Positions 6,880 to 63,952 of a DNA stretch of 64,000 nt are shown one piece after another (the first letter of the stretch is position 1; each line of letters starts with the position of its first letter). A program made the position numbers and the translations under genes. The stretch is from the NCBI GenBank assembly GCA_964475855.1, contig CAYZAV010000002.1, positions 51,933 to 115,932 of the forward strand, given 5' to 3'. The stretch comes from an uncultured Candidatus Saccharibacteria bacterium. GTDB lineage: Bacteria; Patescibacteriota; Minisyncoccia; Minisyncoccales; Staskawiczbacteraceae. Below the pieces are notes generated by a model. It was given only the letters and a program-made list of their open reading frames with translations. It was not told the DNA's origin and did not search any database.

Positions 6880-6883
6880 CTTC

Positions 6884-7060
6884 GCGCCAGCATCCGGGTA
6901 TGAATAGACGCGGTTAATTCCGCCAGCGCGGACCGGCAAAAAAAAGACTCTATCAAGAGTCTTTTTTTTGCCTATTACCGCTCACCTCTCGGCAATTTTC
7001 CCGCTTCGCGGGACCGTGCAAAATTGCCTCCGAGATGCATTCATACCCGGATGCTGTCGC
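6884..7060. repeat. 177-bp structured palindromic (MITE-like) element, copy 1
   Basis: Same length as 39341..39517, with 8 differences by my alignment. 22-nt terminal inverted repeats and an internal 17-bp A8/T8-flanked hairpin. Confidence 0.75.
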
Positions 7061-7070
7061 TATGCACCTC

Positions 7071-7104: not shown

Positions 7105-7136
7105 ATAAAAAAGCCTCCCACTTTTTAGTAGAAGGC
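7105..7136 (-). terminator. Probable terminator of the alphaCTD-like gene
   Basis: On the minus strand: gccttc-N12-ggaggc followed by tttttt. Confidence 0.4.
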
Positions 7137-7162
7137 TATGTTACGGGTTAGCATTAAGGTGG

Positions 7163-7558
7163 CTAGATTTCATCTCTCTGGAGAGCCAATCCTAGCCGTC
7201 GAAGTTTTTCTCGCACTTCATTAAGAGAGGTCATTCCGAAGTTACGAGAGCGATCGAGGAGGTCGTCAGCTGACAACTTAATCAGGTCGCCAAGGATAGC
7301 TTCACCCTGTGGACTGCCGGTAATGGCTCGTCTGCATCCTTTGCGTGCGCGCACCGATAGGTTTAGATCGCTGATTGACATTGCCAAGACCTTTTCTTGG
7401 GTTCTTTCTACTACGGTCGGAACCTCTTCAATTGTCATGGTGAACACGATCCGTTCGCCCGGATTCAGGATGCCATCCCGCTGAACCCAGTTCATCAGCA
7501 TGGTGCGGATCGATTCTTTCTTTTCATTGATGATTCGTACACGATCCTGTTGTTGCAT
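7163..7558 (-). CDS. Orphan RNA polymerase alpha C-terminal-domain-like (HhH) protein
   Basis: C-terminal half ISDLNLSVRARKGC...LGDLIKLSADDLLDRSRNFGMTSLNEVREKLRRLGLAL matches the alphaCTD pattern (LSVRaaNcL...dLl..rNfGkkSl.Ei...L...GLsL). GAGGT SD motif. G+C-rich. Confidence 0.7.
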   Translation of the reverse strand: MQQQDRVRIINEKKESIRTMLMNWVQRDGILNPGERIVFTMTIEEVPTVVERTQEKVLAMSISDLNLSVRARKGCRRAITGSPQGEAILGDLIKLSADDLLDRSRNFGMTSLNEVREKLRRLGLALQRDEI

Positions 7559-7595: not shown

Positions 7596-7624
7596 ATAAT
7601 ATATTATAAAAATAATATTGTCAA
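7596..7624 (-). promoter_or_regulatory. Promoter of the alphaCTD-like gene
   Basis: Minus strand TTGACA(7624-7619)-17-TATTAT(7601-7596). Confidence 0.55.
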
Positions 7625-8642: not shown

Positions 8643-8772
8643 TTTTCCCACCACAACGCGACCGCAGGTGTTTTTTAGTTGGGGAGTGTTGACTTATTGT
8701 GGTTATTATAATAATATAAAAAGTATTAACAAAAACTAAATAAAATTAATTAATATTTAATTTTTAAAAACT

Positions 8773-10639: not shown

Positions 10640-11245
10640 ATGAAGTTTATCATCGGCAAAAAAATTGAAATGACGCAAATGTTTGATGCAAAAGGCAATG
10701 TTGCTCCAGTGACTTTGGTTGCTGCGGGACCTTGCGTGGTTTTGCAGAAAAAAACAAAAGAGCGCGAAGGATATGATGCCATGCAAATTGGCTTTATAAA
10801 ACTTGAAAAGAAAAACAAGATCAAGAAAACCATGAAGGGCAAGGAGTATCGCCATGTCAAAGAGCAGCGCGCCAGTGGAGCAGATCAGATGGCCGATACA
10901 AATGTGGGTGACCAAATTACCGTTGCAAATTTTAAAGAAGGAGATAGGGTGACGGTTATTGGCATGTCAAAAGGAAAAGGGTTTCAGGGTGGAGTTAAAA
11001 AGCACGGATTTGCCGGGCGTAATGCCAGTCACGGAGCCAAGCACGAACAGCGTCAGATTGGTTCAGTGGGACAACGTTTCCCCCAGCACGTGGTAAAGGG
11101 AAGGAAAATGCCTGGACGCATGGGATATGATCGGGTGACAGTTAAAAACCTGATTATCGCCAAAATTGATACAGAAAATAATATTCTTGCACTGAAGGGG
11201 GCTATTCCTGGCCATCGCGGGACACTTTTGGAAATTAAAGGATAA
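10640..11245 (+). CDS. rplC: 50S ribosomal protein L3
   Basis: GMSKGKGFQGGVKKHGF motif; 201 aa. Confidence 0.96.
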   Translation: MKFIIGKKIEMTQMFDAKGNVAPVTLVAAGPCVVLQKKTKEREGYDAMQIGFIKLEKKNKIKKTMKGKEYRHVKEQRASGADQMADTNVGDQITVANFKEGDRVTVIGMSKGKGFQGGVKKHGFAGRNASHGAKHEQRQIGSVGQRFPQHVVKGRKMPGRMGYDRVTVKNLIIAKIDTENNILALKGAIPGHRGTLLEIKG

Positions 11246-15136: not shown

Positions 15137-15328
15137 ATGAAAACCGCAGAATTACGGAAAAAAAATACCAAAGAATTGGAAAAATCGGTGGTGGATCTCA
15201 AAAAAAAGTTGAGCGACATCCGGTTTAAGTTTTCCAGCAATCAGATGAAGAACGTGAAAGAATTGAGCAATATCAAAAAAGAAATTGCCCGCAGTTTGAC
15301 TATTATCAACGAATTTACGAATAAATAA
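15137..15328 (+). CDS. rpmC: 50S ribosomal protein L29
   Basis: 63 aa, position between rplP and rpsQ, ELRKKNTKELEK pattern. Confidence 0.9.
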   Translation: MKTAELRKKNTKELEKSVVDLKKKLSDIRFKFSSNQMKNVKELSNIKKEIARSLTIINEFTNK

Positions 15329-15397
15329 CGAATTTGCGAATTAAAGTGTAATTAACGAGTGTATTAGCAAATTCGTAACACATTCGTAAATTCGCTG
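15309..15397. repeat. Word-built inverted repeat (ttcgtaaa/cgaattt words) spanning the rpmC 3' end and spacer
   Basis: acgaatttacgaat...acgaatttgcgaat pairs with gcaaattcgt...attcgtaaattcg. Related to 42563..42660. Confidence 0.6.
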
Positions 15398-15407
15398 ATT
15401 AACTAAC

Positions 15408-30190: not shown

Positions 30191-30970
30191 ATGATACCGC
30201 TACCAGTAGCGCCAATTGTAATCAAAAAAGGCAAAAACCAAGCCGTTTTTGAAGTGCAGGGATTGTATCCTGGTTATGGGGTAACCGTGGGAAACACTTT
30301 GCGCAGAGTATTGCTTTCCTCATTGGAGGGCGTAGCTGTTACCGAGGTGAAAATCAAAGGCGTGGCACACGAATTTTCCACCATTGCCGGCGTGCAGGAA
30401 GATGTGATTATGATTTTGTTGAACCTGAAAAATTTAAGGTTTAAAATACACGAAGGCACCACCCAAAAAGTGATACTTTCAGTAAAAGGTGAAAAAGAAG
30501 TGACCGGGGCCGATTTTGCACTTTCACCACAGGTGAAACTGGCGAATCCAGAGCTTCATATTGCCACCATTACTGATAAAAAAACTGAATTGGAAATTGA
30601 GATAAAAATTGAAAAAGGAATTGGGTATGAGCCAAAGGATCATCGGAAAATAAAAAGCACGGAAATTGGAGCGATTATATTGGATGCTATTTTTACACCG
30701 ATTAAAAACGTTAATTTTCAAGTGGAAAGCATGCGTATCGGCGACCGGACCGACTTTGACAAGTTATCACTTCAGATGGAAACCGACGGAACTCTGACCC
30801 CAGAAGAAGCGTTCTACGAAGCGTGCGATATTATCATCAAACACTTCAGTATTATTTTCGAAGGAAAAGGAATGGTAATGCCTGAAGCGATAACAGAAGG
30901 AGGGGAAGAAGAAAAACCGGCCAAAAAAGCAGCTGCCAAGAAAAAAGCGGTTGCTAAGAAAAAGAAATAA
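30191..30970 (+). CDS. rpoA: DNA-directed RNA polymerase alpha subunit, N-terminal domain only (259 aa, Lys-rich tail, no CTD)
   Basis: NTD motifs GNTLRRVLLSS, FTPIKNVNFQVE, RIGDRTDFDKL. Ends ...EEEKPAKKAAAKKKAVAKKKK*. Confidence 0.9.
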   Translation: MIPLPVAPIVIKKGKNQAVFEVQGLYPGYGVTVGNTLRRVLLSSLEGVAVTEVKIKGVAHEFSTIAGVQEDVIMILLNLKNLRFKIHEGTTQKVILSVKGEKEVTGADFALSPQVKLANPELHIATITDKKTELEIEIKIEKGIGYEPKDHRKIKSTEIGAIILDAIFTPIKNVNFQVESMRIGDRTDFDKLSLQMETDGTLTPEEAFYEACDIIIKHFSIIFEGKGMVMPEAITEGGEEEKPAKKAAAKKKAVAKKKK

Positions 30971-30972
30971 AG

Positions 30973-31066
30973 AATAAGGTATCCCGCGGAAATCAGGCCG
31001 CAAGGTATACGATATAATTAAGACTGATTTCCGAGGTGAATTTACTCACTTCGTTCATAAATTCAA
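30973..31066 (+). repeat. Dispersed ~95-bp leader-proximal element, copy 2 (fills the rpoA stop to rplQ ATG gap)
   Basis: aataaggtatcccgcggaaatcaggccgcaaggtatacgatataattaagactgatttccgaggtgaatttactcacttcgttcataaattcaaATG. Confidence 0.75.
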
Positions 31067-31417
31067 ATGCGAAAAAAGAATAAAGGCAGAAAATTATCAA
31101 GGCTCAAAAACCAACGGGTGGCGGTGTTAAGGACACTGGCAACCAGTCTTTTTTTGCATGAAAAAATAGAAACCACAGAAGCCAAAGCCAAGGAGTTGCG
31201 CATTGTGGCTGAAAAAATGATTACCCGGGCCCGGGAAAATTCCCTCGCCAACCGGCGCGTATTGGCAAAAGAAATAAATCCCGAAATATTAAAAAAACTG
31301 ATGGCTGACATTGCGCCAAGATACGCCACGCGACCGGGTGGATATACTCGGATTATCAAGCTTGGGCCCCGAAAGTCTGACAGCGCCAGAATGGCCATCA
31401 TAGAACTTGTGAAGTAA
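31067..31417 (+). CDS. rplQ: 50S ribosomal protein L17
   Basis: 116 aa, [10 protein letters not shown]...[15 protein letters not shown]. Confidence 0.95.
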
Positions 31418-34964: not shown

Positions 34965-35882
34965 TTACAGCTTTTCGAAGCCGTCGTTGGTGAGACAACT
35001 GTCTAGGAATGCGATTGCCATATTGCGGCCATCGGTGGCTTGCCTGCCTGCTTTGAAGCGGTTATGCGACCAGAACAAGGGCTTACCGTTTTCTTCTGCG
35101 CAGCAGGTACACCGGTCATTGACCAAGATGCGATTTTCGGGAATGCCGGCGATGCGCAGCATGAACTTGCACAGGGCATAAAGGTCCACGGTCAGATGTC
35201 CCTCGCCAAAGGGACTTTTAGCAGTAGTTTTCTGCAAACACATACGAAGGATAGCGCCGAGGCGGGTTTTTGACGGATCAGAGATTTCCGGCTTGTCGGC
35301 ATATTCGGGCAGCCAACAGCATGGGCCAATGCCATAGCCAATATAGGCGCGGGTTCGGGAAACATTGAAATGTTCCATGGCCGTCATGAGGATATTGGGT
35401 TCCTTGGAGTCTTCCCTGATCAGTGCGCGGTATCCGGCGTGGAGCACCGCCATTCTGTCTTCCTCAACCAAAGCGATGATCGGGCAGTCGGCGTTGAAAA
35501 AAGCAACAGCGTTTTTTTCGCCAAACACGATGCCGCCATCGGCCGGGCTTTTTGTCCGGGTCATGACAATCTCGGTTCTTTCCTCTTGCCCAATGACCAC
35601 GCTGTTATCATAGCAGGCGCCGTCAACCGGGTCATCCTTGGGATCTCCTGGGCCGTAGATGGGAGTCATCACCGTGCGGGCATGGACATCGTCGTCTTGG
35701 CCAAGATACACCACCCGGTTAGTAAAGGCGGGCTTGGGACAAAACAGGGTGTTGGGGCGCAAGGCCAGGAAATCCTGGCGCGCGTGAAACACTTTTTGCA
35801 TGAAATCTTCACGCGAAAGGTTAGTGGGGCTGCAGTTCCATTGCATGCCCACCAGAGACCGGTACAAACGCAAATCTGCCAT
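34965..35882 (-). CDS. YfiH/PgeF (DUF152, Cu-oxidase_4)-like protein, divergent paralog 1
   Basis: FFNADCPIIAL....AVLHAGYRA, GIGPCC, VDLY..C...L...GIPE..I....CTCC....FWSHNR...DGRNMAIAFL follow the YfiH motif order. GGAG SD motif. G+C-rich. Confidence 0.6.
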   Translation of the reverse strand: MADLRLYRSLVGMQWNCSPTNLSREDFMQKVFHARQDFLALRPNTLFCPKPAFTNRVVYLGQDDDVHARTVMTPIYGPGDPKDDPVDGACYDNSVVIGQEERTEIVMTRTKSPADGGIVFGEKNAVAFFNADCPIIALVEEDRMAVLHAGYRALIREDSKEPNILMTAMEHFNVSRTRAYIGYGIGPCCWLPEYADKPEISDPSKTRLGAILRMCLQKTTAKSPFGEGHLTVDLYALCKFMLRIAGIPENRILVNDRCTCCAEENGKPLFWSHNRFKAGRQATDGRNMAIAFLDSCLTNDGFEKL

Positions 35883-35931
35883 TACTAATCTCCAAAAAAG
35901 TCCTGAGCATTGTTAAGGGGCGAATGCCATT

Positions 35932-39321: not shown

Positions 39322-39340
39322 GATGTTGTTTGTTCGATCC

Positions 39341-39517
39341 GCGACAGCATTCGGGTATGAATAGACGCGGTTAATTCCGCCAGCGCGGACCGGTAAAAAA
39401 AAGACTCTGCGAAGAGTCTTTTTTTTACCTATTACCGCTCACCTCTCGGCAATTTTCCCGCTTCGCGGGACCGTGCAAAATTGCCTCCGAGATGCATTCA
39501 TACCCGAATGCTGTCGC
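39341..39517. repeat. 177-bp structured palindromic (MITE-like) element, copy 2
   Basis: Perfect 22-nt terminal inverted repeats gcgacagcattcgggtatgaat / attcatacccgaatgctgtcgc. Same orientation as copy 1. Confidence 0.75.
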
Positions 39518-39523
39518 TACACG

Positions 39524-41433: not shown

Positions 41434-42561
41434 ATGATAATTACTTTGTTGATTGCATTTTTAAGTCTTATTGCCCTCATGATCATCCATGAATTCGGGC
41501 ATTTTATCATTGCTAAAAAATTCGGGGTGAAGGTGGAGGAATTCGGCATTGGATATCCGCCGCGGCTTTTTGGCAAGCAATTTGGCGATACGCTGTATTC
41601 CATAAATTTGGTGCCACTTGGCGCGTTTGTGAAAATTTATGGAGAAGAGGGCGAGGTAGTTTCTGACGTTGATAATTACCGTAGTTTTTCGGGACTTGCC
41701 ATTTACAAGCGTATGTTGATTGTCCTTGGCGGGGTGATTGCGTTTTGGATTGCCAGCATTATTATTTTTTCAGTAATGTTTTTGACCGGCGCCACAATGC
41801 CTGTTGGTGACCAGGATGTGGCCGGATTCACCGATATCACCATCACTATTTCTGAAGTGGCGGAAAATTCCCCAGCTCACGATTCGGGACTCAAAGAGGG
41901 TGATAAGATAGTCAGTGTCCAAGTTGGCCAAGTACGCACGGATATCAAAAAAGTGGCAGATTTTCAGAAAATCGTGCAAGAGAATAAAAGTAAACAAATA
42001 ATCGTAGCCGTTGTGCGTCAAGGGGAAGAACTTTATATTCCATTAATCCCGCGAGTTGAATATCCCGAAGGTCAGGGGCCGACAGGGGTGGTGTTGGAGC
42101 GTCTTGACACTATTATCCAAAAAGCCCCCTGGTATGAAGCTCCGTTCCGTGGAGCCGCGTATTGCTGGAAGGTGACCGTTGATATCACCTATGGCATATT
42201 TTCTTTTTTTGCCAATATCTTCCGGGGACAGGGTGTTCCTTCGGGCGCTGAATTCGCCGGGCCGGTGGGGATTACCATTTTCCTGGCACGCGCAGCAAGT
42301 TACGGAGCAGGATTTTTCCTTTACTTTATCGGGTCTATTTCTGTGCTTTTGGCTATCTTTAATTTACTGCCCATCCCGGCGCTAGACGGGGGGAAGTTAC
42401 TATTTTTAATCATTGAAAAGGTGAAGGGGTCGGCCGTTTCAGTAAAAATAGAGGGTTGGCTGACTATTTTCTTTTTTATTCTATTGATTTCCATGTCGCT
42501 ATTTATTACCATAAAATTTGATTTCCCGCGAGTAATGGAATTTTGGAAAGCAGGGTTGTAA
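41434..42561 (+). CDS. rseP: RIP metalloprotease RseP (M50 with PDZ domain)
   Basis: HEFGHF zinc motif, PDZ-like AENSPAHDSGLKEGDKIVSV, LPIPALDGG. Confidence 0.88.
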   Translation: MIITLLIAFLSLIALMIIHEFGHFIIAKKFGVKVEEFGIGYPPRLFGKQFGDTLYSINLVPLGAFVKIYGEEGEVVSDVDNYRSFSGLAIYKRMLIVLGGVIAFWIASIIIFSVMFLTGATMPVGDQDVAGFTDITITISEVAENSPAHDSGLKEGDKIVSVQVGQVRTDIKKVADFQKIVQENKSKQIIVAVVRQGEELYIPLIPRVEYPEGQGPTGVVLERLDTIIQKAPWYEAPFRGAAYCWKVTVDITYGIFSFFANIFRGQGVPSGAEFAGPVGITIFLARAASYGAGFFLYFIGSISVLLAIFNLLPIPALDGGKLLFLIIEKVKGSAVSVKIEGWLTIFFFILLISMSLFITIKFDFPRVMEFWKAGL

Positions 42562-42562
42562 T

Positions 42563-42660
42563 CAGCGAATTTGCTAATATATTACGAATTTACGAATGTG
42601 GCGAACGAGCGATCACGTAAAGTGTATTCGTAAATTCGTAACTAATTCGTAAATTCGTTG
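42563..42660. repeat. Word-built inverted repeat (ttcgtaaa words), related to 15309..15397
   Basis: cagcgaatttgctaatatattacgaatttacgaatg pairs with tattcgtaaattcgtaactaattcgtaaattcgttg. Confidence 0.6.
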
Positions 42661-42668
42661 ATGATACT

Positions 42669-45071: not shown

Positions 45072-45356
45072 ATGATTTCAAAAGAAGACGTACAGCATAT
45101 TGCCAAGTTGGCGCGATTGGAACTGGGTCAGCAAGAAGCGATAAAAATGCAGCAGGATATGTCGGCGATTTTAGATTATTTTGATTTGTTGAAAAAAGCG
45201 CCAAAAGTTACAAAGGTTACAAAAGTGACAAAGGTAAAAAATAATGGATTGCGCGACGATAAGGTGGGGCAACAAAATAGTGCTTTGGCGGGAGAACTAA
45301 TCAATGCCGCGCCGGATAAAAAGGATGGATATGTCAAAGTTAAGGCAATACTATAA
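45072..45356 (+). CDS. gatC: Glu/Asp-tRNA amidotransferase subunit C (contains a KVTKVTKVTKV repeat)
   Basis: 94 aa, VQHIAKLARLEL...ILDYFD..., precedes gatA. Confidence 0.88.
   Translation: MISKEDVQHIAKLARLELGQQEAIKMQQDMSAILDYFDLLKKAPKVTKVTKVTKVKNNGLRDDKVGQQNSALAGELINAAPDKKDGYVKVKAIL
45207..45233 (+). repeat. Three tandem in-frame 9-bp units (same family) inside gatC
   Basis: gttacaaag gttacaaaa gtgacaaag, translated (K)VTKVTKVTK. Confidence 0.8.
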
Positions 45357-47466: not shown

Positions 47467-47574
47467 TTACCTTAGAAATCCAACGCCCACCGAAAATGCC
47501 ACCATGCTGATTGCCACTAGGCTGATGAGGGCTACCCAAACGCCTTTAAGTATCTTTTTTTGGTTAAATTTCAT
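47467..47574 (-). CDS. Possible 35-aa small membrane protein
   Basis: My translation: MKFNQKKILKGVWVALISLVAISMVAFSVGVGFLR. Its ATG abuts the dispersed element exactly as at rpmB and rplQ. Confidence 0.3.
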   Translation of the reverse strand: MKFNQKKILKGVWVALISLVAISMVAFSVGVGFLR

Positions 47575-47745
47575 GAATTTATGAACGAAGTGAATAAATT
47601 CACCTCGGAAATCAGGCTTAATTATATCGTATACCTTGCGGCCTGATTTCCGCTGGATACCTTATTCGGAAATCAGGCTTAATTATATCGTATACCTTGC
47701 GGCCTGATTTACGCGGGATACCTTATTTTCTCGCAGGATACCTTT
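47575..47745 (-). repeat. Dispersed leader-proximal element, copy 3, with a tandem 61-bp duplication
   Basis: Units 47606-47666 and 47667-47727 differ at 2 positions. A partial third ggatacctttatt box follows. Confidence 0.75.
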
Positions 47746-51673: not shown

Positions 51674-51752
51674 GTGACAAAAGTAGCAAAGGAAGCAGAA
51701 GATACAAAGGCCTTTGAGCCATCTGTATCCTTTGTTACGTTTGAAACTTTTT
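51674..51752. repeat. Hairpin built from GTKRCAAAG-type 9-mers
   Basis: gtgacaaaa gtagcaaag gaagcagaa gatacaaag pairs with cctttgagccatctgtatcctttgttacgtttgaaac. Confidence 0.55.
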
Positions 51753-58637: not shown

Positions 58638-58729
58638 AGAGCTATTAAACTAAGGTGTTTAATCCCAGTGGTGAGGCTTTCGCCATATGCACTTTGATAC
58701 CAGTACAACTGGTAGAAAGGATGATGACG

Positions 58730-59590
58730 ATGTCCAAGACATTGATCACGTCTCGTGAGGCAAAGGGTCTCGAGATCGCCAACTTCTTTGATGTCGTTTT
58801 GAATGAGGCCGGGCTCGACCAAGAGCGGGGCCAGCGCCTCATTGAGAACGGCGGCGAGTTCCAGGAAGGCCTCAAGGACCTCATCAAGAGGTTTTCGGTC
58901 ACGAATCAGTTCGCCAACGAGGAAGTGGCTTCCGGCTATGGTTATCTCTCGGGTTACAAGCCCAAGAGCGTCGCCAGGCAGGTCAAAATCCTCAATGGGC
59001 TGTTCCCGAATTTGGGTTCTGCCAACAAGAGACTGTTTGGCAAACCGCTTCCCGAAAACGCCGAAGGATTGTTCGCAATCCCGCGGTGGGAGTGCTTTTC
59101 CACAACCTACAACGAGGCAGTGGTAAGGGTACTCGACCAGATCAAGCTGATCTGTGGTGGCAAGTTCTACAACTACCGCGAAAACCAGCTCGGTCCAAAG
59201 TTTCTCCGCCAGCACGCCAAAACCGTCAAGGCATTCAGTATGCTGGGCGAACAGCAGACGGGCTACGAGATTCTCGTGGTTGCCTGTCAGTTCGGCCTTC
59301 GGCACCGTGGACGCAGTGTCCGCCGGGCCCGCGAAGTCATGAACTCTTTGGAGTTCGGTCTCGGCGCTTTCGCCAACGGCTGCATGATTCTGACCCACCC
59401 GGAACGCCTCCAGTACTACGACGATCTTTGGATCGATTGTGCCGGTGATGAGTTTTCCGATGGCGGTGTTGGTTCCTTCGGCCACGCTCCGTGCTTCAGG
59501 TTCTATGGCGGCAAGGTCCTCTTCGACTCGAGGCCTCTCGGCGCTGCCTTCGGCAACTGTGGTTCGTCGTCTGGTCTGCTCTCGCAGTAA
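58730..59590 (+). CDS. Hypothetical protein, strongly G+C-rich cassette (286 aa from ATG 58730; GTG 58655 is an alternative)
   Basis: GAAAGGatgatgacgATG. Conserved-looking blocks GLFAIPRWE, QFGLRHRGRSVRRAREVM, ILTHPERLQYYDDLWIDCAGDEF. No family recognised. Confidence 0.6.
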   Translation: MSKTLITSREAKGLEIANFFDVVLNEAGLDQERGQRLIENGGEFQEGLKDLIKRFSVTNQFANEEVASGYGYLSGYKPKSVARQVKILNGLFPNLGSANKRLFGKPLPENAEGLFAIPRWECFSTTYNEAVVRVLDQIKLICGGKFYNYRENQLGPKFLRQHAKTVKAFSMLGEQQTGYEILVVACQFGLRHRGRSVRRAREVMNSLEFGLGAFANGCMILTHPERLQYYDDLWIDCAGDEFSDGGVGSFGHAPCFRFYGGKVLFDSRPLGAAFGNCGSSSGLLSQ

Positions 59591-59612
59591 CCTTGAAATT
59601 TGTTCGTGGTAT

Positions 59613-62440: not shown

Positions 62441-63952
62441 ATGGCAAAGCCCAAGAAAAAAAAGAAACTAGTGCTTGCACGAAAAAAACCGGTAAAAAAA
62501 CCGAAAAAAGTTTTAGTAAAGAAAAAACCGATTACCAAGAGAATAAAAGCCAAGACCTTCCGCGGAGTTTCGCGTAAAATTCAGATTGATTCCGCGCCGG
62601 TAGCAGCCTTTCCGGCGGAGGCATTTTTCAAGGCGAAAATAAAAGTAATTGGCATTGGCGGGGGAGGTGGGTCTATTGTTTCCGAAATTGGCAGGTCTTT
62701 GAACAAGGCCACATTTGTGGTGGCGGATACTGATGAACGCGCGTTTAAAAAACGCCAGGGCATCAAACAGTTTTTATTCGGCCAGGAATTGACACATGGT
62801 TTGGGTACCGGATTAAACACCGACTTGGCACAGCGGGCCGCTGAAAGTGAAAAAGAAAATATCGCTAAATTATTTGACGGCCAGGATATTGTTATTTTTA
62901 TCGCCTGTTTGGGCGGAGGATTAGGAAGTGGTGCCACCCAAATATTCGCCGAGGCGGCCAAAGATTTCGGGGGAATTACCTTTGGTATTTTTACGCTGCC
63001 ATTTAAATTTGAAGGCAAAAACAAGCAAAAAATCGCAGCCAAGGCGTTGCGGGAACTACGTAAATCACTTAATGTTTCCATTACTATTCCCAACGAGCGT
63101 ATTTTTAAAATCATCCAGGAAAACACGGCCATTACTGATGCGTTCAGTACGGTTAACCGCAGCCTGATAGAATCGTTGGAAAGTTTGATAGATTTGATTT
63201 ACAATCCCGGTGTCATTAATATTGACTTCGCCGATCTGCGCGCTATTTTAAAGGGACGGGGGAATTTGGCGTTTTTAAATACGGCCGAGGCTTCCGGGGC
63301 TAATAGGGCGGATACCATCATTCATGAAATTTTGCATAACCCCCTATACCAAAGTAATAATTTTTCCGCCGAAAAAGTGCTATTTAACATTGCGAGCGGG
63401 GGAAATTTAAGCATGTTTGAGGTGGATAAAATAAGCCGGGTCATTTCTGAACATAACCAGTCCGCCAAGATTATTTTCGGGATTTCCAAAGACAATTCTC
63501 TGAAAAATAAAATCAAGACGACGCTGCTCATGACGGGGGCACCGCTTGGGGTGGAGCCCGATGCTACAAAGGTTACAAAGGTTGCAAAGGTGGCAGAGGT
63601 CGCAAAGGCTCCGGAAGCTACAAAGGTGACAAAGGCTACAAAAGTGGCAAAGACCACAAAGGTGGCAAAGGTGGTCTCGCCTTCGCCTAAGGCTTCGGCG
63701 AAACAAAGAAAGAAAAAAGTGGTGCCGGCGTCAAAAACCCCACCGCTTCAAAATGTTCCCGTTTTTTCCAATGTGTACGAGCCGGCCGAAAATTCGCGTA
63801 AATTGAGCATTGTTGAGCCACCACAGAAAAAAGCCATCAGGCGCACAGCATTGGAAGTGAAAAAAGCCGAAGAAATACAAGAACAAAGGCAATCCGATCA
63901 GGAAAAAGAGTGGGAAATTCCAGCATTTTTAAGAAAAATAAAGATCAAATAA
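62441..63952 (+). CDS. ftsZ: Cell division protein FtsZ with a ~60-aa Lys-rich N-terminal extension and a repeat-built C-terminal linker
   Basis: GIGGGGGS, ACLGGGLGSGA tubulin-signature region. C-terminal peptide EWEIPAFLRK. Confidence 0.9.
   Translation: MAKPKKKKKLVLARKKPVKKPKKVLVKKKPITKRIKAKTFRGVSRKIQIDSAPVAAFPAEAFFKAKIKVIGIGGGGGSIVSEIGRSLNKATFVVADTDERAFKKRQGIKQFLFGQELTHGLGTGLNTDLAQRAAESEKENIAKLFDGQDIVIFIACLGGGLGSGATQIFAEAAKDFGGITFGIFTLPFKFEGKNKQKIAAKALRELRKSLNVSITIPNERIFKIIQENTAITDAFSTVNRSLIESLESLIDLIYNPGVINIDFADLRAILKGRGNLAFLNTAEASGANRADTIIHEILHNPLYQSNNFSAEKVLFNIASGGNLSMFEVDKISRVISEHNQSAKIIFGISKDNSLKNKIKTTLLMTGAPLGVEPDATKVTKVAKVAEVAKAPEATKVTKATKVAKTTKVAKVVSPSPKASAKQRKKKVVPASKTPPLQNVPVFSNVYEPAENSRKLSIVEPPQKKAIRRTALEVKKAEEIQEQRQSDQEKEWEIPAFLRKIKIK
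63563..63670 (+). repeat. Twelve tandem in-frame 9-bp units (GTKRCAAAG family) inside ftsZ
   Basis: gctacaaag gttacaaag gttgcaaag gtggcagag gtcgcaaag gctccggaa gctacaaag gtgacaaag gctacaaaa gtggcaaag accacaaag gtggcaaag. Confidence 0.85.

Follow-up and report, generated by a model that had tools for sequence, protein, structure and literature searches.

Can a bacterium transcribe its genome with an RNA polymerase alpha subunit that has lost its C-terminal domain (alphaCTD), and if so, what stands in its place? Textbooks treat the domain as universal among bacteria; it recognizes UP elements, makes sequence-independent contacts with upstream DNA that speed promoter capture, and is where class-I activators dock. 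The question is raised by the rpoA gene in the 64-kb stretch of DNA analyzed here (the window, which is part of a 403,851-bp contig and is also the scope of the search for further rpoA copies). The organism belongs to the Parcubacteria (Paceibacteria) and is Staskawiczbacteria-like, and the order of genes around rpoA is canonical (infA-rpsM-rpsK-rpsD-rpoA-rplQ-rplM-rpsI). We find that this rpoA encodes an intact alpha N-terminal domain (NTD), that the alphaCTD has been cleanly deleted, and that a disordered tail of ~30 residues is present instead.

An alpha subunit without its C-terminal domain

Both parts of the alpha NTD are matched by Pfam: RNA_pol_A_bac (PF01000) at residues 53-169 (profile positions 1-119 of 119, E = 8.5e-32) and RNA_pol_L (PF01193) at residues 27-219 (profile positions 5-74 of 74, E = 9.3e-22). 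The profile for the missing domain, RNA_pol_A_CTD (PF03118), has no match in the 259 amino acids, even at E<=10. The NCBIfam equivalogs for rpoA, which span ~300-340 positions, match over the first ~225-250 positions only and stop before the CTD. One of them, TIGR02027, passes its cut-off (245 bits, with 227.8 required), and the others fall below theirs because the CTD part is absent. Alpha chains in the PDB align through the NTD and linker only (15-247 of 314 in Thermus, 24-245 of 329 in E. coli). The AlphaFold2 model, based on 98 homologs, has a confident NTD, with a predicted local distance difference test score (pLDDT) of ~85-93 through most of it and a last helix at residues 204-229. Residues 230-259 are modeled without secondary structure, with mean pLDDT values of 41, 47 and 55 in blocks of 10 residues and values below 50 over residues 230-247. 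Because the NTD is intact, the protein can dimerize and act as a scaffold for beta and beta-prime.

The DNA downstream of the gene leads to the same answer. Only 96 nt separate the rpoA stop codon from the rplQ ATG (31067), and no CTD-coding remnant is found in this spacer, which has stops in all frames. A CTD hidden in another frame, or reached via slippage on the A-runs, was considered and rejected because the spacer is closed in all frames; it may be added that CTD-coding DNA of relatives yields no Lys-rich peptides in its other frames. A preliminary description of this DNA had proposed an NTD-only alpha with a Lys-rich tail and had seen no CTD remnant in any frame, and both proposals are borne out by Pfam, NCBIfam, the PDB alignments, the AlphaFold2 model and the closed spacer. 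It had also placed a dispersed element between the stop codon and rplQ. This part stands, although the element begins one base after the stop (at 30972) rather than 2 nt later, as had been stated.

The element in question is a 94-nt dispersed repeat that fills the rpoA-rplQ spacer and can form two hairpins (Table 1). Its copies in the window are 82-97% identical, all of them in apparently intergenic DNA, and the RNA fold has an energy of -22.5 kcal/mol (z = -2.05). The repeat is absent from all related loci that were fetched, and three of these (L004, L018 and L021) have longer rpoA-rplQ spacers, which show no alignment to the repeat. It was considered as the cause of the truncation and rejected, given that the closest relatives, L004, L011 and L013, carry Lys-rich tails without it. 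The repeat is a later, genome-specific insertion.

The rpoA product ends ...IIFEGKGMVMPEAITEGGEEEKPAKKAAAKKKAVAKKKK, in which an acidic spacer, the ancestral linker, is followed by a polybasic block (Table 1). Statistics for such tails were drawn from 89 homologs that carry a Lys-rich tail (K-tail). The median length is 33 amino acids (range 19-52). Lys accounts for 37% of the residues, Ala and Glu for 13% each and Pro for 5%, and aromatic residues are almost absent. The first half of the tails is 23% Asp/Glu and 18% Lys/Arg (the linkers of CTD-bearing forms, of median length 23 amino acids, are 26% and 14%), and the second half is 57% Lys/Arg and 7% Asp/Glu. Median net charge is +8, and in 84% of the tails at least four of the last six residues are Lys or Arg. 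Pairwise identity is ~40% between tails, compared with ~75% between NTDs; what is conserved in the tail is composition and polarity, not sequence. The composition also differs from the chance output of A-rich DNA, in that Asn, Ile, Phe, Tyr and Leu make up 5% of the tails, versus the 28% expected from random translation at the base composition of the window. Since the linkers of CTD-bearing Staskawiczbacteria are acidic, the basic block is added sequence and more than a linker. Within the window, where the last 20 residues of open reading frames (ORFs) average 18% Lys/Arg (standard deviation 11%), those of rpoA reach 50%. The only other ORFs at 40% or above lie in ribosomal-protein operons and have basic ends typical of ribosomal proteins, a label that is based on operon position and on these termini rather than on individual profiles.

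CTD-less alpha subunits among relatives

Among the 120 closest rpoA homologs (71-100% identity), 92 are 245-278 amino acids long and nearly all NTD-only with a Lys-rich end, and the remaining 28 are 295-318 amino acids long and carry PF03118. The named homologs are from Candidatus Staskawiczbacteria and Parcubacteria. The ending NAKKK is common to many of the homologs found in the databases. We also surveyed 80 GTDB species-representative loci (Staskawiczbacteria, Nealsonbacteria, Wildermuthbacteria, Paceibacterota and Minisyncoccales; referred to by L numbers where needed), with rpoA classes assigned using clade-specific NTD and CTD hidden Markov models (HMMs). Three states were found: the CTD is present at 33 loci, with 79-106 residues after the NTD; a Lys/Arg-rich tail is present at 39, with 25-72 residues after the NTD; and the NTD is bare, with only 3-14 residues after it, at 8. 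The alpha subunit is CTD-less in 47 of the 80 species. The bare species fall in two clades (L024, L036, L057, L062, L068, L069, L077 and L079) and have rplQ directly 3' of rpoA.

In all three classes, only a few nucleotides lie between the rpoA stop and the start of rplQ (medians of 6, 1 and 15.5 nt). With rplQ this close, the CTD-coding segment must have been cleanly removed rather than disabled, as there is no room left for it. The protein from the window was found, identical, on three contigs across NCBI, ENA and Logan, and the architecture of NTD plus tail is a stable inherited state of the clade. It is therefore scarcely conceivable that an assembly error, a sequencing frameshift or a pseudogene conceals a true rpoA with a CTD. 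The concern, raised in the preliminary description, is a natural one, because the tail is coded by indel-prone A-runs and because error-ridden long-read contigs do yield fake split rpoA genes (L171 and L172). However, it is ruled out by dozens of independently assembled relatives that have the same architecture with rplQ abutting, and both the three identical contigs and the short spacer, occupied as it is by the repeat element, also speak against it. The L171 and L172 assemblies appear to be error-prone in general, with rpoA and many ribosomal-protein genes split over two or three ORFs. The "CTD-only" proteins that databases list for contigs of this type are artifacts, and could mislead surveys for split rpoA genes.

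How often the CTD was lost was evaluated on a tree of eight concatenated proteins (IF-1, S13, S11, S4, alpha-NTD, L17, L13 and S9; 1166 columns; neighbor-joining with 100 bootstraps), which replaced an NTD-only neighbor-joining tree that was too star-like to be used. Fitch parsimony on the eight-protein tree gives 17 changes between CTD and no CTD, with the CTD as the root state. At least six contrasts between CTD and K-tail are well supported, including L030 (K-tail) with L055 (CTD) at a bootstrap value of 100, L044 (K-tail) with L048 (CTD) at 92, and L023 (K-tail) with L033 (CTD) at 85; L001 (K-tail) lies inside a CTD clade (bootstraps of 87 and 100). By comparison, L018-L021 form a clade in which all members have the K-tail (bootstrap 100). 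The window groups with the K-tailed L004, L011 and L013 (bootstrap 56), and this group lies within a 100%-supported clade that also holds the CTD-bearing L002, L003, L007 and L009. Related lineages appear to have reached the K-tail or bare state repeatedly and independently.

A stand-alone alphaCTD gene in the window, and other features

The window does contain an alphaCTD, although not in rpoA. A scan of all six-frame ORFs with a mixed alphaCTD HMM found a single alphaCTD-like ORF, the same one that the preliminary description had singled out, and it encodes a stand-alone protein of 131 amino acids (Table 1; "the orphan" below). PF03118 matches it at E = 5e-11 (42.6 bits, cut-off 23.8), and it matches the Bacillus subtilis alphaCTD (3gfk_B) at E = 2e-7, with a 6-residue insertion. 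In the AlphaFold2 model, a helix at residues 3-27 is joined through a linker of low confidence to an alphaCTD fold (residues ~49-121) that superposes on 1z3e_B at 1.4 A with a template modeling score of 0.89 (Foldseek). No Pfam match was obtained for the N-terminal 56 residues. The LSVRAR motif is kept, and its Arg aligns with E. coli R265. The gene has a GAGGT Shine-Dalgarno sequence ~5 nt before its ATG, in addition to the promoter-like and terminator-like elements listed in Table 1, and it is identical and in the same arrangement in five assemblies of one study. The 180-nt repeat that borders it, the first copy of which begins right after the fusA stop, is 96% identical between its two copies and holds a palindrome (GGCAAAAAAAAGACTC...GAGTCTTTTTTTTGCC) that is set within a second inverted repeat.

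The obvious thought is that this gene is the lost half of rpoA, and this was rejected on identity, absence from relatives and family membership. The orphan is 23-27% identical to the rpoA CTDs of the clade; its BLASTP identity to a family of stand-alone, PF03118-only proteins is 46-55% (up to 60%), and the clade-CTD HMM does not match it at E<=1e-3. No ortholog was found among 5.8 billion proteins or in a metagenome scan, and none of the 80 relatives has a stand-alone CTD ORF within 10 kb of its rpoA. The stand-alone family, which consists mostly of double-CTD proteins (one is named from Pirellulaceae), shares with the orphan the PF03118 domain and the motifs LNLSVRARK...NFGMTSLNEVREKL. The orphan differs in its single CTD (not two), in its N-terminus and in a 6-residue insertion (TGSPQG) that only it has; it is also a singleton in a genome of the Candidate Phyla Radiation (CPR). 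Its GC content is 49.5%, against 42.7% for the window (~1.6 standard deviations), a difference that is not by itself decisive for foreign origin. The orphan is probably foreign, and horizontal acquisition is the simplest reading.

Stand-alone alphaCTD sequences occur elsewhere too. A search of 1.84 billion representatives with the clade-CTD profile returned mostly multi-repeat alphaCTD proteins, plus short CTD-only ORFs, the latter mostly fragments from contig edges or frameshifts. The multi-repeat proteins (P0241-P0250) have up to 13 tandem alphaCTD-like repeats (e.g., 1031 amino acids with 11 repeats), and three multi-repeat genes are adjacent on L170 (4350-11096). Four short contigs (L166-L169; 0.5-1.3 kb, at least one of them at a stated coverage of 1.5x) have Parcubacteria-type alphaCTD ORFs just before rplQ, and upstream of these no NTD coding was found in any frame; Rfam and BLAST returned nothing meaningful for the upstream sequence. 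Two of the four ORFs have a Lys/Arg-rich N-terminus. These contigs may represent a real split of rpoA or chimeric assembly, and, if real, some relatives may have separated the two halves of alpha.

Table 1. Features discussed in the text (positions are those of the window unless a locus is named)
Feature	Position	Strand	Basis
rpoA, 259 amino acids, stop TAA at 30968-30970	30191..30970	+	ORF list, sequence, Pfam and NCBIfam matches
Alpha NTD, residues 1-229, with dimerization (RNA_pol_L) and insert (RNA_pol_A_bac) domains	30191..30877	+	Pfam, AlphaFold2, solved NTDs
Acidic spacer, residues 230-241 (MPEAITEGGEEE), matching the NTD-CTD linker of CTD-bearing relatives	30878..30913	+	Composition, pLDDT
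Polybasic tail, residues 242-259 (KPAKKAAAKKKAVAKKKK), 10 Lys in 18, in the alphaCTD position	30914..30967	+	Sequence
94-nt dispersed repeat in the rpoA-rplQ spacer	30972-31065	+	Repeat comparison, RNA fold
94-nt repeat, other copies	2685-2778; 47574-47667	-	
94-nt repeat, tandem partial copy	47666-47727	-	
rplQ (ribosomal protein L17), usual gene 3' of rpoA	31067..31417	+	ORF list; L17 relative downstream of rpoA at every locus (phmmer)
Stand-alone alphaCTD protein, 131 amino acids, antisense between fusA and tuf	7163..7558	-	PF03118, structure model
Sigma-70-like promoter of this gene, TTGACA-17-TATTAT, 11/12	7596..7624	-	Consensus scan
Intrinsic-terminator-like hairpin and T-run directly after its stop	7112..7137	-	Consensus scan
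180-nt repeat, two copies	6883-7062; 39340-39519		
Parcubacteria-type stand-alone alphaCTD ORFs directly 5' of rplQ	L166 332-652; L167 346-621; L168 178-453; L169 83-316		
FtsZ	62441..63952	+	Tubulin and FtsZ_C domains
9-nt tandem repeat (CAAAGGTTA-type) encoding the FtsZ linker	63558-63672		
Same 9-nt repeat family	45193-45244; 51678-51711		
Paired inverted arrays of ATTCGTAAATTCGTAA-like units	15301-15401; 42559-42666		
GC peaks	35100-35900; 58700-59600		

Some further features of the window deserve mention. FtsZ has a polylysine N-terminal extension of ~60 residues (MAKPKKKKKLVLARKKPVKKPKK...) as well as a Lys-rich linker that is encoded by a 9-nt tandem repeat, and members of this repeat family are also found at two other places. 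At each of two loci, paired inverted arrays (84-88% complementary) look like operator sites or the ends of a mobile element. Two stretches stand out by a 400-nt GC content more than 2.5 standard deviations above the mean (up to 59%, versus 43%), and Rfam found no RNA family in either of them.

A possible role for the tail and comparison with known systems

We would give an even chance to the idea that the polybasic tail, which stands in place of the cleanly deleted CTD, acts as a nonspecific tether to upstream DNA. The two tails of the alpha dimer would extend from the polymerase on its upstream side, where the linker normally emerges, and would serve as sequence-nonspecific electrostatic tethers to DNA upstream of the -35 element, likely favoring the AT-rich minor groove. 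They would retain the generic upstream-DNA contact that is normally given by the alphaCTD, and the specific surfaces that serve UP elements and class-I activators would have been given up, as would suit organisms with very few transcription activators. CRP/FNR-type activators, for example, are not found in CPR bacteria (PMC12531629). The orphan alphaCTD protein would be a separate acquisition, unneeded in this scheme.

Several points weigh against the tether and against the repeated losses that accompany it. It is from composition alone that we infer binding of DNA by the tail, and the eight species with a bare NTD imply that a CTD-less polymerase can dispense with it. Lys-rich linkers are already present in several distant CTD-bearing relatives (L064, L067, L028 and L073), and some K-tails may have been inherited as linker and not newly selected. 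At L011 (around 10765-10785) and L013 (around 8720-8740), rpoA and rplQ overlap by ~17 nt, and the tail ending "...NAKKK*" comes from reading the rplQ start ATGCGAAAAAGAAATAA out of frame. The polybasic segments of FtsZ indicate that such extensions occur more widely in this genome, which weakens the case for a role specific to nucleic acids. A further rpoA with a CTD could lie elsewhere in the genome, given that the search covered the 64 kb of the window. The tree is a distance tree with many weak deep nodes, and exchange of rpoA 3' ends among relatives by recombination could make the losses look more numerous than they were.

Some of these points would fit pure reductive loss, in which the CTD was dispensable and the tail is functionless, either leftover linker or a by-product of A-rich DNA. 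The persistence of eight species with almost nothing after the NTD, the Lys-rich linkers, the ends that are set by overlap with the rplQ start region and the polybasic extensions on proteins such as FtsZ all speak for such loss. We nevertheless regard it as unlikely. The length of the tails, their acidic-then-basic polarity and their basic end are kept in 89 tails at an identity of ~40%, the residues expected from random A-rich translation are depleted, and, with the CTD-form linkers of Staskawiczbacteria being acidic, the basic block is additional to them. A tail with a different job (RNA or ribosome binding in coupling, nucleoid localization, or condensation) seems to us rather improbable, even though similar basic tails in the window are on presumed ribosomal proteins, which bind RNA, and FtsZ suggests that polylysine is not DNA-specific here. 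The tail sits where the linker and CTD normally emerge, on the side of the upstream DNA (as judged from established RNA polymerase architecture and the NTD alignment), and it appears when the DNA-binding CTD disappears.

It is also conceivable, but very improbable, that the polymerase has been split in two, with the orphan alphaCTD acting in trans on upstream DNA and/or on sigma region 4 or the alpha tail. The orphan looks like a working gene, with its confident alphaCTD fold, the Arg of LSVRAR that corresponds to R265, its promoter-like site, Shine-Dalgarno sequence and terminator-like hairpin, and its identity in five assemblies (albeit from one study); moreover, the CTD ORFs before rplQ on L166-L169 hint that the two domains may be separated in some relatives. 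Against this, the orphan is far closer to the stand-alone, mostly double-CTD family than to the CTDs of its own lineage, it lacks orthologs in the protein and metagenome searches, none of the 80 relatives surveyed has a stand-alone CTD ORF near rpoA, and nothing was identified that would attach the orphan to the polymerase. The L166-L169 contigs are short and one is thinly covered, and similar splits on L171 and L172 are plainly frameshift artifacts.

Returning to the tether, its broadest form would be that the alphaCTD was lost at least six times (17 by parsimony) in one candidate-phyla class and was mostly replaced by a polylysine tail that is a new DNA-contact module. We put this forward tentatively, as a possibility about which we have more doubts than confidence. 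If it is true, these lineages are natural experiments in initiation that is free of activators and UP elements, and some of them may use a free-standing alphaCTD in trans. Repeated discard of the alphaCTD in a large bacterial group shows how little regulatory apparatus suffices. That a polylysine tail, instead of nothing, usually takes its place is a further point of interest, and the existence of three states (CTD, K-tail and bare) among close relatives could make it possible to separate the generic DNA-tether role from the specific roles of the CTD. There is a practical consequence as well: pipelines and completeness checks that expect an RpoA of 300-340 amino acids, or use PF03118 as a marker, will mis-score such genomes.

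Loss of the CTD from this phylum had been noted once. A paper that documents it in Hodgkinia and Tremblaya states in one sentence that it "is also present in Parcubacteria", as well as in microalgal plastids (PMC8321222). It gives no Parcubacteria data, and the main text of the reference cited there (Nelson & Stegen 2015) contains no mention of RNA polymerase. In a 2026 review of alpha-like subunits, an alpha with two domains is presented as the norm for bacteria (PMC13374769). Our literature search found no other link between Parcubacteria or Patescibacteria and the alphaCTD, and no account of a Lys-rich tail, of three coexisting states in close relatives, of repeated loss, or of an unrelated orphan CTD. 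The tail, the mixed states and the recurrence are thus apparently undescribed.

The closest functional parallel is experimental. E. coli alpha without its CTD assembles and supports basal transcription, as established with the engineered alpha-235 and alpha-256 (Igarashi & Ishihama 1991 and Hayward et al. 1991, cited in PMC8321222), in which the NTD alone dimerizes and assembles core enzyme, and responses to UP elements and class-I activators are lost. The eight bare relatives are essentially a natural alpha-235. However, alpha-235 and alpha-256 are laboratory constructs without a basic tail, whereas the CTD-less form in the window is a native gene in a canonical operon. To our knowledge, such E. 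coli truncations are unable to serve as the sole alpha in vivo.

Natural parallels are found in reduced genomes, namely, those of the endosymbionts Hodgkinia and Tremblaya and of Euglena plastids, in which the NTD is likewise kept and the alphaCTD lost (PMC8321222). Unlike Hodgkinia and Tremblaya, the organism of the window and its relatives do not live inside host cells as endosymbionts. Archaeal RpoD and eukaryotic Rpb3/AC40 likewise lack an alphaCTD and are built on the same two-domain platform for assembly (PMC13374769). These heterodimerize with RpoL/Rpb11 and are recruited to the promoter by separate factors, whereas the protein of the window is clearly a bacterial alpha (TIGR02027).

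For the tail, the nearest likeness is to the H1-like Lys/Ala/Pro tails of mycobacterial HupB/MDP1, chlamydial Hc1 and Pseudomonas AlgP, which bind DNA nonspecifically and often prefer AT-rich sequence. The block at the end of rpoA is likewise Lys/Ala/Pro-rich, of low complexity, predicted to be disordered and net positive, and it shares PAKK/AKKA motifs with them. The likeness is compositional, as homology is untraceable in low-complexity sequence. We know of no report of an H1-like tail on an RNA polymerase alpha subunit. A parallel from within the phylum is parcubacterial YidC, for which a positively charged C-terminal extension has been proposed to compensate for the missing signal recognition particle (PMC4508563). 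There the protein is a different one and the partner is the ribosome rather than DNA, and the YidC role, like ours, is a proposal only, but the logic is the same: a lost module or partner would be replaced by a basic C-terminal tail.

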